From contig UYFQ01000001.1 of the NCBI GenBank assembly GCA_900617105.1, positions 3,782,001-3,846,000 of the forward strand: 64,000 nucleotides of DNA. The letters run 5' to 3'. The notes under the pieces were generated by a model, which was given only the letters and a program-made list of their open reading frames with translations, was not told the DNA's origin and ran no database searches. The stretch is from Hydrurus foetidus. Taxonomy: Eukaryota. Shown here one piece after another: positions 10,489 through 56,443 of the stretch. Numbering within the stretch: the first letter of the stretch is position 1; every line of letters begins with the position of its first letter. A program made the position numbers and the translations under genes.

Positions 10489-11381
10489 AGCGCTTGCAAC
10501 GAGGGGGCGCAGCTGCGCTGACGTTTGTAGGCATCGCCTTGATGCGCTTGCTGGCGTTTATGCCGCTGCGGGTAGTGCGCGGGCTCGGCGCCATGCTGGG
10601 CTGGGCGCTGTACCTTCTTGTCAGCTCCCGCCGCCGGGTGGTCACGATTAACTTGACGCTATGCTTTAAGGAGCTGTCCGCGCCCGAAATCAGGCGGCTA
10701 ACACAGCAAACCTTCGTGTATTTTGCACAGGCATGGCTAGACCGAAGCTGGGTGTGGCATGCGCCGCGCAGCTGGTTGCTCAGGCGCGTGACCATGACCG
10801 GCGCGGTCGGTGAAATCATCGGCAACGAGCCGACGGTGATGTTCACGCCGCATTTTGTGGGTATGGACGCTGCCTGGGCGGGCATGGTGCTGCGCCAGCC
10901 GCGCCAGTCAGTGACGATTTACACCGACCAATCAAACAAGCAGGTTGACAGCTGGATTTTAAAAGGCCGAAGCCGCTGGGGATTCATGCGTTTGCTGGGG
11001 CGGGCCAGCGGCGTCAAACCCGTGATTGCAGCGGTTCGCGCGGGCGAGCCGCTGTACCTGCTGCCCGACATGGACTTTGGCCCGGTCGACTCAATATTTG
11101 TTCCGTTTTACGGTGTGCCAACGGCCACCGTGCCGTCACTTTCGCGGTTCGCCAGATTGGGCCGAGCCAAGGTGGTGCCAGCCGTGGTGACCATGACCCG
11201 TTCGGGTTATGAGTTGCGCATTCATACCGCATGGCCCCATTTTCCGACCGACGATATAGCTGCCGACACGGCCTTGATGAATCGCCATTTGGAAAGCTAT
11301 ATCAACCAAAACCCGGCGCAGTACTACTGGGTACACAAACGGTTTAAAACCCGGCCACTGGGCGAGCCTGAAGTGTATTGA
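10485..11381 (+). CDS. Second lipid A acyltransferase (HtrB/LpxL family)
   Basis: PHFVGMD, LPDMDFG and PAQYYWVHKRFKTRP; ATGA overlap with previous gene. Confidence 0.9.
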   Translation: MKRLQRGGAAALTFVGIALMRLLAFMPLRVVRGLGAMLGWALYLLVSSRRRVVTINLTLCFKELSAPEIRRLTQQTFVYFAQAWLDRSWVWHAPRSWLLRRVTMTGAVGEIIGNEPTVMFTPHFVGMDAAWAGMVLRQPRQSVTIYTDQSNKQVDSWILKGRSRWGFMRLLGRASGVKPVIAAVRAGEPLYLLPDMDFGPVDSIFVPFYGVPTATVPSLSRFARLGRAKVVPAVVTMTRSGYELRIHTAWPHFPTDDIAADTALMNRHLESYINQNPAQYYWVHKRFKTRPLGEPEVY

Positions 11382-29325: not shown

Positions 29326-29652
29326 CTAAGCCTCCGGCGTCACCCCCCGCGCCACCAAAAACCGCGCCACCATGTTGTAGGTTGCAATCGCTGCCGTCAA
29401 CTCAACAATTTTCGTGGCGTCGAAGTGTTGTTTGAGCTGCGCGAATACCTCGTCGGCCACCTTCACGTCCAGTGTCATTTGCGCTGCGTATTGAACCACT
29501 ATGCTTTCAATAGCTGCTAGCGCCTTATTTTGTTGGGCCACAGCCGTGTTTGCCTTGTAAATGAGGCAAACTTGCTGCAATGCATCTAGCTCAGTCTGTG
29601 TGCCGCCTGCTTTTAAAAAATCTGGCGCGTGGTGGTGGTGTTCGTACGCCGC
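29326..29652 (-). pseudogene. 5'-truncated duplicate of the CMD-family gene 3' end
   Basis: Manual alignment with 31192-31513: about 33 mismatches in 322 nt, no gaps; no 5' half. Confidence 0.9.
29497..29552 (-). repeat. Dispersed ~55-bp element, copy 4, in the CMD fragment
   Basis: caaacacggctgtggcccaacaaaataaggcgctagcagctattgaaagcatagtg on minus strand. Confidence 0.85.
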
Positions 29653-31174: not shown

Positions 31175-31741
31175 TCAGATTCCAGGTCGTGCTTCCGGCG
31201 ACACCCCCAACGCCACCAAAAACCGCGCCACCATGTTGTACGTGGCAATCGCCGCCGTCAGCTCCACAATTTGCGTGGTGTCAAAGTGTTGTTTGAGCTG
31301 CGCGAACACCTCGTCACTGACTTTAACGTCCAGCGTCATTTGCGCTGCGTATTGAACCACTATGCTTTCAATAGCTGCTAGCGCCTTATTTGATTGGGCC
31401 ACAGTCGTATTTGACTTGTAAATGAGGCAAACTTGCTGCAATGCATCCAGCTCGGCCTGTGTGCCGCCTGCTTTTAAAAAATCTGGCGCATGGTGGTGGT
31501 ATTCATAGGCGGCTCCGGTCAGTAGCGCCACAGTGCAGATGCCGAGTTCGCGCAGTTTCCAGCTGGTCGGCAGGTCGGTGCGCACGGCTTTTAAATACAC
31601 GTTCCAGCCGCGCGCCAGTGGTTCGCTCCACAGTAGCGCTTTGTCGAGGTTGATGAACTCGCCGCCCCGGCGTTTCAAAATGGCTTGTACCAAGTCATCG
31701 GGTTGAGGTTTAAGTGCAGGGGTCCAGTCAGGGATGCGCAT
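31175..31741 (-). CDS. Carboxymuconolactone decarboxylase/AhpD-family protein
   Basis: LRELGICTVA...YEYHHH and IVELTAAIATYNMVARFL. Confidence 0.85.
   Translation of the reverse strand: MRIPDWTPALKPQPDDLVQAILKRRGGEFINLDKALLWSEPLARGWNVYLKAVRTDLPTSWKLRELGICTVALLTGAAYEYHHHAPDFLKAGGTQAELDALQQVCLIYKSNTTVAQSNKALAAIESIVVQYAAQMTLDVKVSDEVFAQLKQHFDTTQIVELTAAIATYNMVARFLVALGVSPEARPGI
31358..31413 (-). repeat. Dispersed ~55-bp element, copy 5, inside the CMD CDS
   Basis: caaatacgactgtggcccaatcaaataaggcgctagcagctattgaaagcatagtg. Confidence 0.85.
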
Positions 31742-31788: not shown

Positions 31789-32703
31789 ATGATGCAACTG
31801 AAGCGGGTCAAATTCACCAAAATGCAGGGCGCGGGCAATGACTTTGTTGTGCTGGACGAGACGCGCGGCTTGCTGGGCTTGAATGCTGCGCAGTACCGGT
31901 TTTTAGCCGACCGGCATTTTGGCGTGGGGGCCGATCAGATTTTGTCGGTTCGGCCCGCGCCTTCGCCTGCGGTGGACTTTGAGTACGTGATTCACAACGC
32001 CGATGGCGGTGAGGTAGAACACTGCGGCAACGGTGCGCGCTGCTTTGTACGATTTGCGCGTGAGCGCGGTTTGACCGACAAGGCGACTCTGAAAGTACAA
32101 ACCATGAACCGCGTGCTCACGCTCGCGATGCAAAGCGACGGCCGGGTCACGGTTGACATGGGCGCGCCGGTGTTTGACTTGGCCCGCATTCCGTTTGATG
32201 CGACTGGATTGACGCCTGAAAACGCCAATTCATGGCAAAAATGGCCGTTAAATATGGCTGCAGCCCAATTAATACAGGCGCAAGCAGCTCCTGTATTGGT
32301 AGCAGTTAGTGTGGCCGTCCTGTCCATGGGCAACCCGCATGCGGTGCAGGTAGTAAGCGACGTGGACGCAGCGCCGGTGCTGCAGTTGGGCCCGCTGATC
32401 GAAAGCCACGCGCGCTTTGCCAAACGGGTTAACGCCGGGTTCATGCAAATCGTCAGCCGCAGTGACATCAAACTTAGGGTGTACGAGCGCGGCGCGGGTG
32501 AGACGCTGGCCTGCGGCACGGGCGCGTGCGCGGCGGTGGTGGCGGGCATTCGCCTGGGCCTGCTCGATGGGAAAGTCAACGTGCAAACACATGGCGGGCC
32601 GCTCACTATTGAATGGTCTGGCGCGCTGGACGCGCCTGTGATGATGACCGGGCCAGCCACGACGGTTTTTGAGTCTGAAATCGACATCCCCGATACGGTC
32701 TGA
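31789..32703 (+). CDS. dapF: Diaminopimelate epimerase
   Basis: [24 protein letters not shown] and [16 protein letters not shown]. Confidence 0.98.
32249..32304 (+). repeat. Dispersed ~55-bp element, copy 6, inside dapF
   Basis: taaatatggctgcagcccaattaatacaggcgcaagcagctcctgtattggtagca. Confidence 0.9.
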
Positions 32704-36418: not shown

Positions 36419-37606
36419 ATGAAATCACTGCACTTAAAACCCGGAAAAGAAAAATCCCTGCTGCGGCGCCATCCCTGGGTGTTTGATGGCGCTATTGCCA
36501 CGGGCAGTGCCGATGCGGGCGAGACGGTGCGGGTTGAAAGCGCCGACGGCCAGTTTTTAGGCTGGGCGGCGTACAGCCCGCAATCAAAAATTCGCGCGCG
36601 AGTGTGGAGTTTTGATGAGGCGCAGCGCATTGACGCTTCTTTTTTCATAGCTGCTTGCGCCCGTTCTATATCGTCTAGAAGCCTGTTTGATATACAAAGT
36701 AACGGCTTGCGGCTGATTCATGGTGAGTCTGACGGCCTGCCAGGCCTGGTGGTCGACCGCTATGCAGACACGCTGGTGGCGCAATTTTCCAGCTGCGGCT
36801 CAGAGCGCTTTAAAAGCGTGATTGTGGATGCGCTGCTCAAGCAAACCGGCTTGACCAAGCTCTACGAGAGATCAGACGCCAGCGTTCGCGCGCTTGAAGG
36901 CTTGCCCGAGGCAACCGGTTGGCTGGCCGGGTCTGGATCAACAGAAATCGTTTTAACTGAGCATGACTGGAAGCTCAGCCTTGACGTTGCCGAAGGGCAC
37001 AAAACCGGGTTTTATCTAGACCAGCGCGACAGCCGCTACAAGTTCAGCCAGTACACCCGCCGCATGGGGTTCAAGCGGGTGCTCAATTGCTACAGCTACA
37101 CGGGCGGTTTTACGGTGGCAGCGTTGGCCGGCGGGGCGGCGCATGTCACGTCGATTGACTCGTCTGGCCCGGCAATTGAGCGTGCAAAAGCCAACGTAGC
37201 CCTGAACGGCTTTGACGCGGCGCGCACCACCATGATCGACGCCGACGTGAACGCCTGCCTTCGCCAGTACCTGAAAGACGGCGTAACGTTCGATGCCATC
37301 GTGCTCGACCCGCCCAAATTCGCCCCGACTGCGGCGCACGCCGAGCGCGCGGCCCGAGCCTACAAAGACATTAACCGCCTGGCTTTGATGTTGCTCGAAC
37401 CTGGCGGCGCGCTTTTTACCTATTCATGTTCAGGTGGCATCAGCGCTGATTTGTTTCACAAAATCGTGGCCGGCGCGGGCATGGACGCAGGCGTTGACGC
37501 TTACATTACCGAACGCTTGGGAGGCGCACCGGACCACCCAATGACCGTGACATTTCCTGAAGGCGAATACCTGAAGGGGATGGTGTTGGTCAAAAAGCCA
37601 GCCTGA
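36419..37606 (+). CDS. rlmI: RlmI-like class I SAM-dependent 23S rRNA m5C methyltransferase
   Basis: RRHPWVF, GESDGLPG, GHKTGFYLDQR, LDPPKF, SCS and EGEYLKG. Confidence 0.88.
   Translation: MKSLHLKPGKEKSLLRRHPWVFDGAIATGSADAGETVRVESADGQFLGWAAYSPQSKIRARVWSFDEAQRIDASFFIAACARSISSRSLFDIQSNGLRLIHGESDGLPGLVVDRYADTLVAQFSSCGSERFKSVIVDALLKQTGLTKLYERSDASVRALEGLPEATGWLAGSGSTEIVLTEHDWKLSLDVAEGHKTGFYLDQRDSRYKFSQYTRRMGFKRVLNCYSYTGGFTVAALAGGAAHVTSIDSSGPAIERAKANVALNGFDAARTTMIDADVNACLRQYLKDGVTFDAIVLDPPKFAPTAAHAERAARAYKDINRLALMLLEPGGALFTYSCSGGISADLFHKIVAGAGMDAGVDAYITERLGGAPDHPMTVTFPEGEYLKGMVLVKKPA
36634..36689 (-). repeat. Dispersed ~55-bp element, copy 7, inside the rlmI-like CDS
   Basis: caaacaggcttctagacgatatagaacgggcgcaagcagctatgaaaaaagaagcg on minus strand. 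Confidence 0.8.
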
Positions 37607-52966: not shown

Positions 52967-54039
52967 ACACTCCCTGTGCATTAATCATGGCGGGTGGCAC
53001 TGGCGGCCATATTTTCCCTGGGTTAGCTGTGGCTGAAGCCTTGCGCGACAAGGGGTGGCGCGTGCACTGGCTAGGCGCAAAAGGAAGCCCTGGCCAGCCG
53101 AGCATGGAAAGCCAGCTTGTTCCGCTGCGGGGTTTTGCTTTTGAATCGATTGAGTTTTCGGGTGTCCGCGGAAAAGGGCCACTGACGCTGGCCTTGTTAC
53201 CGCTGCGTCTGCTCAAAGCGTTTTGGCAAAGCATTCAAGTGCTTAGGCGCGTTAAGCCTTCGGTAGTGGTCGGTTTAGGTGGCTACATCGCGTTTCCAGC
53301 TGGCATGATGAGTGTTCTGCTCGGCAAGCCCCTGGTTTTGCATGAACAAAATTCAGTTGCTGGAATGGTCAATCGGGTACTTGCTACCGTGGCTGACAAG
53401 GTGTTTTTGGCATTTCCAGGTGCACTTAAAAACGGCGAGTGGATTGGTAACCCCATGCGCCAAGGTTTTACTACGCAGCCGTCACCTGACGAACGATTCC
53501 TTGGCCGAACAGGGTCTTTGCGAGTTTTGGTGGTGGGCGGAAGTCTGGGCGCGAGAGGCTTGAACAGTGTGGTTCCGCAAGCGCTGGCTTTGATTCCCGA
53601 AGCGCAGCGTCCAATCGTTACTCACCAAAGTGGCGCTAAACAAATTGATGAACTGCGTGCCAATTACCTTTCCGCAGGTGTCAACGCCTCGCTGACTCCC
53701 TTCATTGACGATACCGCGACTGCTTTTGCTCAGGCTGATCTGGTGATTTGTCGCGCCGGGGCAAGCACCGTAACGGAGATCGCCGCTGTGGGAGCCGCCG
53801 CTTTGTTTGTACCGTTCCCGGCAGCAGTGGACGACCACCAAACTACCAACGCTAAATTCTTGGTCGACCAAGGCGGCGGTTGGCTTATTCAACAGAAAAA
53901 TTTGACCGCTGAGTTACTTGCAGATATGCTACAAAAAACAGAGCGATCAGCGCTTTTAAAACAGGCGGTGCAGGCTAAAAAGATGCAGAAAATTGATGCC
54001 ACAGCACGAATCGTCGAAGTATGTGAGGCGTTTGCATGA
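52963..54039 (+). CDS. murG: Lipid II GlcNAc transferase
   Basis: GGTGGH, HEQN, GGSLGA, RAGAST and DHQ..NA. Confidence 0.97.
53927..53982 (-). repeat. Dispersed element, degenerate copy 9, inside the murG 3' end
   Basis: ctttttagcctgcaccgcctgttttaaaagcgctgatcgctctgttttttgtagca; aligns without gaps but is the most diverged copy. Confidence 0.5.
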
Positions 54040-55469
54040 AGCACGCAGTTAATCACATTCACTTCATCGGCATCGGTGGCTCAGGCATGTCAGGCATTGC
54101 CGAAGTGCTGCACAACCTTGGTTATGTGATTTCTGGATCAGATTTGTCAGACAGCGCACCTTTGCGTCGACTTGCTGCCTTGGGCGTAAAAACCTTTGTC
54201 GGTCACGCTGCTGAAAACCTCGCTTCGGTTGATGCGGTGGTGACGTCCACCGCACTTCAAGCCGATAACCCAGAAGTCGTGGCCGCGCGGGAAAAGCGTA
54301 TACCAGTGGTTCCACGCGCAATGATGCTTGCCGAGCTAATGCGGCTCAAGCGCGGCATTGCGATTGCTGGCACACACGGCAAAACCACCACCACCAGCCT
54401 GGTCGCCAGCATTTTGGCGGAAGGCGGGCTAGATCCCACTTACGTGATTGGCGGCCGTTTGAACAGTGCTGGCGCTAACGCAAAGCTGGGCGCGGGTGAC
54501 TACATCGTGGTGGAAGCCGATGAATCTGATGCATCGTTTTTAAACCTGCTGCCCGTGATGGCAGTGGTCACCAATATTGATGCTGACCACATGGAGACCT
54601 ATGGGCACGACTTTGAAAACTTGAAAAAGGCGTTCGTAGAGTTTTTGCATCGCATGCCGTTTTACGGCACAGCCATTTTGTGCACAGACGACGCCGCAAT
54701 ACGCGAAATTCTGCCGCTGGTGACTTGTCCTGTCACGAGTTACGGCTTTGGCGAAAGCGCAGAAGTTCGGGCGGTTAACGTTCGCCACGTCGGAGGGCAA
54801 ATGCACTTTATTGCCCAGCGCCGAAATGGCGTTGTGTTGCCAGACCTCGACGTAGTGCTTAACCTGGCTGGTGAGCACAACGTGCTCAATGCACTGTCAG
54901 CCATCGCAGTCGCCGTTGAACTGAACGTGCCTGATGCGGCGGTGCAAAAAGCGCTGGCAGAGTTCAAGGGAGTAGGGCGCCGTTTTCAAAGCTATGGCGA
55001 GCTGCCAGCACTTGGCGGTGGAAAGTTCACGTTGATTGAGGATTATGGTCACCACCCAGTAGAAATGGCCGCAACGCTGGCAGCAGCGCGCGGCGCATTT
55101 CCCGGCAGTCGCCTGGTGCTGGCATTTCAGCCGCACCGCTACAGCCGCACCCGCGATTGTTTTGAGGATTTTGTCAAAGTAATTGGGCAAGCCGATGCGG
55201 TGCTGATCTCAGAAGTCTATGCAGCTGGCGAGCAGCCGATTGTTGCTGCGGACGGTCGCGCGCTGGCCCGAGCAGTGCGTGTTGCAGGCAAGATTGAGCC
55301 CCTTTTTGTTGATGCGATTGAGGCCATGCCGCAAGCCATCATTGACAGCAGTCGCGCGGGTGATGTGGTGGTTTGTATGGGTGCAGGGTCTATCGGCGCC
55401 GTGCCGCAAAAAGTAGCAGATTTGCTATTAATAAAAGAGCGCCTTGCGCCCGTAAAGGTTGGGCTATGA
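54036..55469 (+). CDS. murC: UDP-MurNAc:L-Ala ligase
   Basis: [27 protein letters not shown] and FQPHRYSR. Confidence 0.97.
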
Positions 55470-55478
55470 GCCAATTTA
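55423..55478 (-). repeat. Dispersed element, copy 10, spanning the murC stop and ddl start
   Basis: taaattggctcatagcccaacctttacgggcgcaaggcgctcttttattaatagca on minus strand. Confidence 0.85.
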
Positions 55479-56443
55479 ATGGTAACTTTGGCAAGGTAGC
55501 CGTGCTGATGGGCGGGAAGTCGGCAGAGCGAGAAGTCTCGTTGATGTCCGGTACCGGCGTATTGCAGGCGCTACGTGCCAGTGGTGTTGATGCGCACGCC
55601 TTTGACCCCTCAGAACGTGAAATGAGTGAACTCAAGGCGGAAGGCTATGCGCGTTGCTTCATTGCATTGCACGGCAGGTTTGGCGAGGACGGAACGGTTC
55701 AAGGAGCGCTTGAGCTTATGGGGATTGCCTACACCGGATCGGGCGTCATGGCATCTAGCATCGCTATTGACAAAGCCATGACCAAACGCGTTTTGATGTC
55801 GGCTGGTTTGCCGATGCCAAAGCATGTCATGCTCACCCGCGGTGCTTACACCTCAGCCGACACATCTGCAGCGATTCAAACGCTGGGCTTACCGCTTATT
55901 GTCAAACCGTCGCGTGAAGGTTCATCCCTCGGCTTGAGCCAAGTACAGACCGCAAACGACATGCTTGCTGCAGTGGACCGCGCTGCTGCCATGGACGCAG
56001 ATGTCTTGTGCGAGCAATTTATTGACGGAGATGAGGTCACTTGCCCGGTATTGGGTGCAGGCGATTCCGCCCGCGCCTTGCCGGTTATTCGTATCGTTGC
56101 TGCCGAGGGCAACTACGACTATCACAACAAATACTTTACTGACACCACTCAATATGTCGTGCCTTGCGGCTTGCCAGCAGGAGAAGAGCAAGCAATACAG
56201 AAAATGGTGGTCGATGCTTTCCGGTCTTTGGGTTGCCGCGGCTGGGCTCGGGCCGATGTCATGATTGACAAGCGAACCCGCAAACCCTATTTGCTGGAGA
56301 TCAACACCTCCCCAGGCATGACCAGTCATTCGCTGGTGCCAATGTCCGCTCGTGCGGCCGGCATGTCTTACGAGGCGCTTTGCCTTGAAATTCTAAAGTC
56401 AGCGTCGCTTGATTACCCAAGCAGTAGGGGGGTGGGCGCATGA
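55466..56443 (+). CDS. ddl: D-Ala-D-Ala ligase
   Basis: [30 protein letters not shown] and EINTSPG; ATGA overlap with murC. Confidence 0.96.

Follow-up and report, generated by a model that had tools for sequence, protein, structure and literature searches.

The window (the whole stretch of DNA analyzed, 64,000 nucleotides) contains the dcw cluster of a Polaromonas. At its murC-ddl junction lies one copy of a motif of about 57 bp found across the Comamonadaceae. This copy codes for MurC residues 463-477, the murC stop, the ddl ATG, and Ddl residues 1-5. Our analyses suggest that it is probably a double-stranded site for a putative dimeric host protein, maintained and retuned by selection or drive on a tolerant tail and leader of the two enzymes. 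The features of the junction are as follows, all on the plus strand.

54036..55469, plus strand: murC (NCBIfam); solved structures match its fold up to residue 461-465, and the motif covers the variable tail, residues 463-477
55466..56443, plus strand: ddl (NCBIfam); residues 1-5 lie under the motif, ahead of the conserved part (from residue 7-10)
55423..55479, plus strand: junction copy of the ~57-bp motif, with a weak tail to about 55493 (about 14 more bases)
55424..55440, plus strand: core dyad GCTAY-N7-RNAGC, the family-wide conserved part, coding MurC 464-468
55448..55464, plus strand: second dyad with a 7-base spacer, varying by lineage
55455..55458, plus strand: AAGG, the predicted ddl Shine-Dalgarno word, in the second-dyad spacer and off the motif consensus
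55466..55469, plus strand: ATGA, the murC stop and inferred ddl start, a host feature found without the motif too

A motif copy at the murC-ddl junction

The Ddl of the window is identical in sequence to one Polaromonas Ddl, and the junction is 98% identical to that of the closest comparison genome (G001). murC ends with ...[17 protein letters not shown], ddl begins with [13 protein letters not shown], and the two genes overlap by ATGA at 55466-55469. We infer that ddl starts at 55466; the next in-frame start, at residue 13, would remove the strand that aligns from residue 7-10 in solved Ddl structures. Because solved MurC structures align up to residue 461-465 and solved Ddl structures from residue 7-10, the motif is confined to a MurC tail and a Ddl leader, and the tolerance of these two segments would explain why a copy is hosted at the junction.

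About a dozen motif copies lie within the window. A profile built from six other window copies recovered the focal copy at 55424-55479 with an E value of 3.1e-7, and an ungapped scan scored it at 48.9 bits, compared to -46 +/- 11 for the background. In a scan with a matrix of 67 other copies, drawn from the window and from 228 kb of G001 on contigs chosen for having matches, the focal copy scored 53.6 bits, which is mid-range for the repeat family; this matrix gave no match above 15 bits in three shuffles. These values bear out the preliminary description of this DNA, in which one element copy encodes the MurC C terminus, the stop, and the ddl start. The position given there was right, but the span of 55423-55478 was one base short. 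Also as described there, ATGA stands where other copies differ, most of them reading ACAG (30 copies) or AGAG (26 copies), with ATGA in only 1 of 196 copies and GTGA in one.

Architecture and genomic distribution of the motif

In the motif unit, a GC-rich linker joins the conserved 17-bp dyad GCTAY-N7-RNAGC to a second dyad, which has a 7-base spacer and is centered 24 bp beyond the core dyad, and AT-rich tracts fade near 70 bp. The core may have a LysR-like T-N11-A spacing. The core pattern matched 344+332 times in G001 compared to 14+15 times for a reversed control. By core matches per Mb, 161 Polaromonas genomes separated into 114 motif-rich genomes (at least 50 per Mb), 46 motif-poor genomes (at most 22 per Mb, including the unpublished G042, which enters this tally only), and one between. 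Across the bacterial family, about 63 of 201 genomes contained more than 120 core matches by hand count. On the complete chromosome of G156, 35 oriented copies ringed the chromosome, 17 on the leading and 18 on the lagging strand, and these 35 copies of one genome did not reveal strand polarity or ori/ter confinement of the KOPS, Chi, matS, or parS type.

We rejected a reading of the motif as a hairpin or RNA element due to a lack of arm covariation and of an Rfam match. In 197 copies from 14 genomes, 16 of the 17 arm pairs were at shuffle level and one was at p 0.025 (189 vs 187). The motif had no Rfam match at gathering score; the window gave only an RNase P RNA (Rfam RF00010, 14571-14953).

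We also considered that the motif may descend from an old MITE- or REP-like insertion in an early comamonad, which made a longer MurC tail and whose copies were later homogenized by gene conversion. Against this possibility, the 197 copies lacked a flanking 3-5-base target duplication at a constant offset, and their ends fade out rather than being sharp. Likewise, the spacers are unrelated among copies, and we did not find a burst of near-identical copies among 72 from G001 and the window, where unrelated copies differ at at least 13 of 70 bases. The single near-identical exception among these 72 was one 300-nt segmental duplicate. In the window, 29330-29629 and 31191-31490 form a 300-nt direct duplication, 90% identical, with a motif copy in each half and one gene flanked.

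Some occurrences lie outside ordinary chromosomal settings. A motif copy was present in 12 viral contigs, several within open reading frames, and in viral contig L388 (2471-2560) the motif starts a gene just past an ATGA that this gene shares with its upstream neighbor, parallel to murC-ddl. A blastn search of plasmids and phages, insensitive as it used a single 73-base query, gave no match. G277, a genome otherwise motif-poor, contains three clustered cores (C12:212591-213010), two of them 31 bp apart, which may represent an operator or DNA of recent acquisition.

The murC-ddl overlap occurs independently of the motif

In the preliminary description, the element was thought to be domesticated into the translational coupling of murC and ddl and thus to be either unremovable or selected for. 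As a coupling device, the motif might, for example, form a hairpin tying ddl initiation to murC translation. We obtained junction sequences for 125 of the 161 Polaromonas genomes (87 rich and 38 poor; two others ran off contig edges) and counted overlaps strictly, as ATGA or GTGA at -4 only; a looser ATG/GTG/TTG count would add nine doubtful TTGA. All 44 genomes with the core at the junction have some -4 overlap, 43 of them ATGA or GTGA, as a coupling device would lead one to expect. However, the same strict overlap was found in 34 of the 43 rich genomes without the core and in 25 of the 38 poor genomes, and it was unchanged in 4.8 of five independent pairs differing in the core. An ATGA junction also occurs in Caldimonas, in Thiomonas, and at four of ten loci of other families. 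Thus, coupling exists without the motif, and the proposed domestication is not supported. Relatives lacking the motif also have the overlap, so it is likely that the motif is a protein-read signal on a tolerant spot and not a part of the coupling. Relatives without the element, to which the preliminary description had looked for a comparison of termini, have the same coupling architecture but different terminal residues.

Nor is the element unremovable. Different junction spacing without a core was observed in 17 of the 87 rich genomes, so the segment has been deleted in motif-rich lineages and the junction copy is removable. Core-less, respaced junctions occurred even at more than 200 cores per Mb (G102, G078, G145, G156, and G140), and G119 and G135, which share a clade with these genomes (FastTree support 0.90), keep the junction core. 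With 43 of 87 rich genomes lacking the junction core, the site is optional.

The window copy departs from the consensus of its own genome at 15 of 56 positions. The motif consensus read in the murC frame contains two stops, no ATGA, and no Shine-Dalgarno word. Two of the departures remove the in-frame stops, four make AAGG, three make TGA, and six are unexplained; as nine of 15 are gene signals, the motif yields at translation signals. A Shine-Dalgarno-like word is present in the second-dyad spacer of 30 of 44 junction copies compared to 15 of 196 other copies. Two further observations favor a coupling device: this word lies in the second-dyad loop, with hairpin folding of the dyad in G087 and G143, and the clade of the window has the most complete copies (44-54 bits). 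However, the predicted opening energy of the ddl start was no higher with the motif (9.0 kcal/mol in the window, 11.5 +/- 2.9 with the core, and 14.0 +/- 4.3 in poor genomes), arguing against occlusion of the ribosome-binding site by the motif. Considering also the absence of arm covariation and of gene signals in the consensus, we regard a coupling device as very improbable.

Two other arrangements were observed at junctions. Those of L044, L048, and L054 contain two core dyads in an intergenic gap, with the murC stop within the first. A GC-rich repeat of ~80 nt, distinct from the motif, is in frame in the Ddl N terminus at the junctions of L006, L107, L258, L260, and L052, and the same repeat is upstream of ruvC in L408.

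The motif is maintained at the DNA level

The junction core was present in 44 of 87 rich genomes and in none of 38 poor genomes, including nine poor genomes of equal spacing. The junction leucine codon under the core was CTA in 41 of 72 rich and 0 of 7 poor cases, compared to a background in the murC body of 36 CTA in 3,074 leucine codons (1.2%). The core occupies the same junction register in L049, L047, L050, and L093 (Comamonas and two other lineages), and in L049 and L047 the murC stop is inside the core. We examined further copies within genes of the window, listed here.

53928..53983, plus strand: murG copy (LQKTER), without length change relative to orthologs without the motif
36635..36690, plus strand: copy in an RlmI-like methyltransferase, replacing equal length in 5 of 5 relatives
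32248..32303, minus strand: copy within a loop of dapF; relatives have a loop shorter by 4-8 residues

The murG copy, 1.5 kb upstream of the junction copy, has a core in 75 of 87 rich and 0 of 36 poor genomes, nearly invariant as DNA in the 75 rich Polaromonas genomes bearing it. The leucine codon under this core was CTA in 69 of 86 cases, and murG is equal in length to its Caldimonas and Thiomonas orthologs (0 residues added).

LQKxE-like peptides at both the MurC and MurG sites might suggest that selection acts on the protein sequence of the MurC tail, or that the likeness arose by chance. This explanation is largely refuted by the codon counts, with synonymous positions held at 57-80% CTA against 1.2%. 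It further conflicts with the persistence of the core when a stop lies inside it, with the location of the tail beyond the solved MurC fold, and with an E value of 3e-7, so that we give it almost no credence. These findings support selection on the junction motif as DNA. The suggestion that the element is selected for therefore holds in one sense, that of a genome-wide DNA motif with biased codons and a fit to the dialect of its genome (see below), but not for coupling.

The lengths of host genes bear in both directions on an ancient insertion. The murG and RlmI copies replace equal length, against an insertion. In its favor, junctions bearing the motif exceed the shortest junction forms by up to 27-36 nt (at most about 9-12 codons) and share their spacing with Diaphorobacter and L050, copy-bearing intergenic gaps exceed those of some motif-poor relatives in length, and the dapF loop is extended. 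Gain of the motif in place is thus a common but not the sole mode, and due to the longer MurC tail and dapF loop we retain an ancient insertion as an alternative, although an unlikely one. The dapF loop has eight more residues than four relatives and four more than G087, with an apparent short duplication (VAVS/VAVL). A lipid A acyltransferase gene (window 10658-10713) contains the left half of a copy only.

On the Polaromonas tree, the rich or poor state switches only four times. In three supported rich/poor pairs, the murG core changed in the matching direction in 2.9 of 3 (p 0.25), as did the junction core in 0.7 of 3 and never in the opposite direction; with three supported pairs only, significance is out of reach for either link. 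One clade (G016, G019, G059, G065, G111, and G173) at 83-96 core matches per Mb has no core at murG or at the junction.

The junction copy follows the motif dialect of its genome

The sequence 3' of the core differs among genomes, and we built such dialects from 4-70 copies per genome. Across 13 genomes, the junction copy fit the dialect of its own genome (best in 7 of 13, p 1e-4), as did the murG copy (p 5e-5), although these p values overstate the significance because kin have both features in common. The core alone carried no dialect signal in these 13 genomes. The dialect statistic was 7.0, compared to maxima of 4.0 in 359 orthologous murC windows and 4.7 in 500 composition shuffles, and the match gave p 0.0002-0.0014 in two 7-genome subsets thinned of close kin. 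Genomes with a tighter dialect had a better junction match (rho 0.76). Such tracking is also expected from the gene conversion that an ancient insertion would involve.

Within the clade of the window (W, G001, G162, G087, G143, and L114; support 1.00), junction copies scored 44-54 bits and neighbors scored 10 bits or less. The high scores of this clade may reflect either sharpening or retention; G041, elsewhere on the tree, has a junction copy of 43 bits.

Candidates for a putative protein reader of the motif

In family-level searches, none of seven candidate readers separated rich from poor genomes. ComEC was present in 74 of 75 genomes, rich and poor alike, as was a ComP_DUS/PilE-like pilin at the level of the family rather than of pilin subtypes (74 of 75). 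RdgC was found in 11 of 15 poor and 14 of 18 rich genomes, ComM in 14 of 15 poor and 16 of 18 rich genomes (30 of 33), and RecC in 0 of 33 genomes. A ComEA search gave none over the cut-off, and its matches were mostly long, unrelated HhH proteins.

A Y1/RAYT candidate was likewise rejected, being present in 75 of 75 genomes. This RAYT-like Y1 gene is single-copy in all 75 Polaromonas genomes (e.g., L363 1512-1838; L363-L382) and lies upstream of a large conserved gene, presumably gltB. It is flanked by its own AT-rich repeat, different from the motif, and among the matches listed, the motif was within 200 bp of it in 2 of 10 rich genomes. The gene looks domesticated. The presence of this sole universal Y1 transposase in poor genomes as well, next to another repeat, also counts against an ancient insertion.

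In comEC, the Competence domain is split or spread over more DNA near model position 140-158 in several motif-rich genomes (G034, G040, G083, G084, G131, and G150); the alteration is possibly a motif-bearing loop. The comEC of G054 appears frameshifted.

A model for the junction copy and its implications

In our model of a double-stranded site, which would behave much as DNA uptake sequences or HIP1 do, a dimeric reader would bind the 17-bp core and touch the weaker adjacent repeats. Either selection on binding or biased uptake with recombination would move sites base by base toward the current preference, and this pull would act only where protein and translation constraints permit. At the junction, the motif would be overridden by three host needs, for an open murC frame, for the Shine-Dalgarno word of ddl, and for ATGA. 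Once a lineage lost the system, decay or deletion of the site would follow. An uptake-type drive and a chromosome-binding protein appear about equally probable as the force behind such a site. Several points count against this model: the candidate readers did not track the motif, the rich or poor state switches only four times on the tree, the junction site is optional, the junction and the dapF loop are longer with the motif, the dialects come from 4-70 copies per genome, and 57-70 bp is long for build-up by point change alone.

More tentatively, and with less confidence than we place in the junction site itself, the motif may represent a genome-marking system in many Comamonadaceae. One putative protein would read a multi-dyad signal of 57-70 bp at several hundred sites, rewriting codons and termini of essential cell-wall enzymes, with retuning per lineage and loss in several clades. 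If so, the motif would add a third, palindromic type to the known self-DNA uptake tags or serve as a new chromosome-organizing site, and the murC-ddl junction would record a tug of war between the motif and translation signals. The failure of the domesticated-coupling claim lowers the weight of the junction site in itself. The junction nonetheless offers a clean natural experiment, in which a DNA-level force fixes rare codons in murC and murG, tracks dialect, and appears to give way nowhere but at stops, the Shine-Dalgarno word, and the start. Among 161 Polaromonas, the 114 rich and 46 poor genomes form matched clades in which the reader could be sought. Should this reader prove to be an uptake receptor, it would account for the selective transformation reported in the family and aid genetic work there.

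Comparison with known systems

Pieces of the motif are already in print. In passages of their 2017 report, Tong et al. described spaced word pairs in Polaromonas naphthalenivorans CJ2 and Acidovorax ebreus, such as ATAGCT(N)22CAAAAG (PMC5217627). This pair and supplement pairs from GCTAT/ATAGC fit pieces of our motif, and about 24% of the CJ2 pairs are in genes, with 6% overlapping gene ends. Unlike the present motif, those passages give the pairs as unlinked novel words with no function assigned and do not cover the full unit, its family range, or an orthologous-site or codon analysis. A repeat named VeiPR1 is mentioned in part of another report, where no sequence is given (PMC3975124). In the literature searched, with subscription papers and the Pinel thesis outside its scope, neither the whole unit nor its murC-ddl copy was found described.

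Among mobile repeats, Rickettsia palindromic elements and MITE-ORF fusions resemble the motif in being translated in frame in housekeeping genes, as excerpts of a survey describe (PMC10969869). In the same excerpts the Rickettsia elements are insertions of ~150 bp that add a peptide; in contrast, the murG and RlmI copies add 0 residues without a target duplication. REP/REPIN sequences with RAYT are likewise abundant short dyad repeats, often near gene ends. The motif differs from these in lacking hairpin covariation, and its distribution is not that of the RAYT-like gene, which occurs in all 75 genomes next to a repeat of its own. Unlike a MITE, the motif had no target-site duplication or recent near-identical copies in 197 copies.

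Cyanobacterial HIP1 (PMC5861425, PMC4390886) is similarly palindromic, hyper-abundant, and lineage-dependent, with a function that was long open. It is an exact 8-mer with a link to methylases, whereas the motif is spaced, multi-part, and degenerate.

The uptake sequences of Neisseriaceae (DUS) and Pasteurellaceae (USS) differ from the motif in form, as they are asymmetric words of 9-12 bp, whereas the motif has a 17-bp dyad as its core, set in 57-70 bp. Nor does the distribution of competence genes match that of the motif, and any role of the motif in uptake is putative. Nevertheless, these systems are alike in several respects. According to portions of PMC2397512 and PMC2817400, DUS and USS occur in hundreds of copies on both strands, in permissive parts of core genes, where they shape the encoded residues. 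Motif copies are likewise dispersed without strand polarity and are in place in the MurC tail, murG, and RlmI, with the dapF copy adding residues. Motif hosts, both rich and poor, also have competence genes (ComEC, PilE/ComP-like, and ComM, at the frequencies given above). Within the family, Verminephrobacter eiseniae and Acidovorax temperans are competent, and evidence for selective uptake in V. eiseniae is given in part of PMC4212676.
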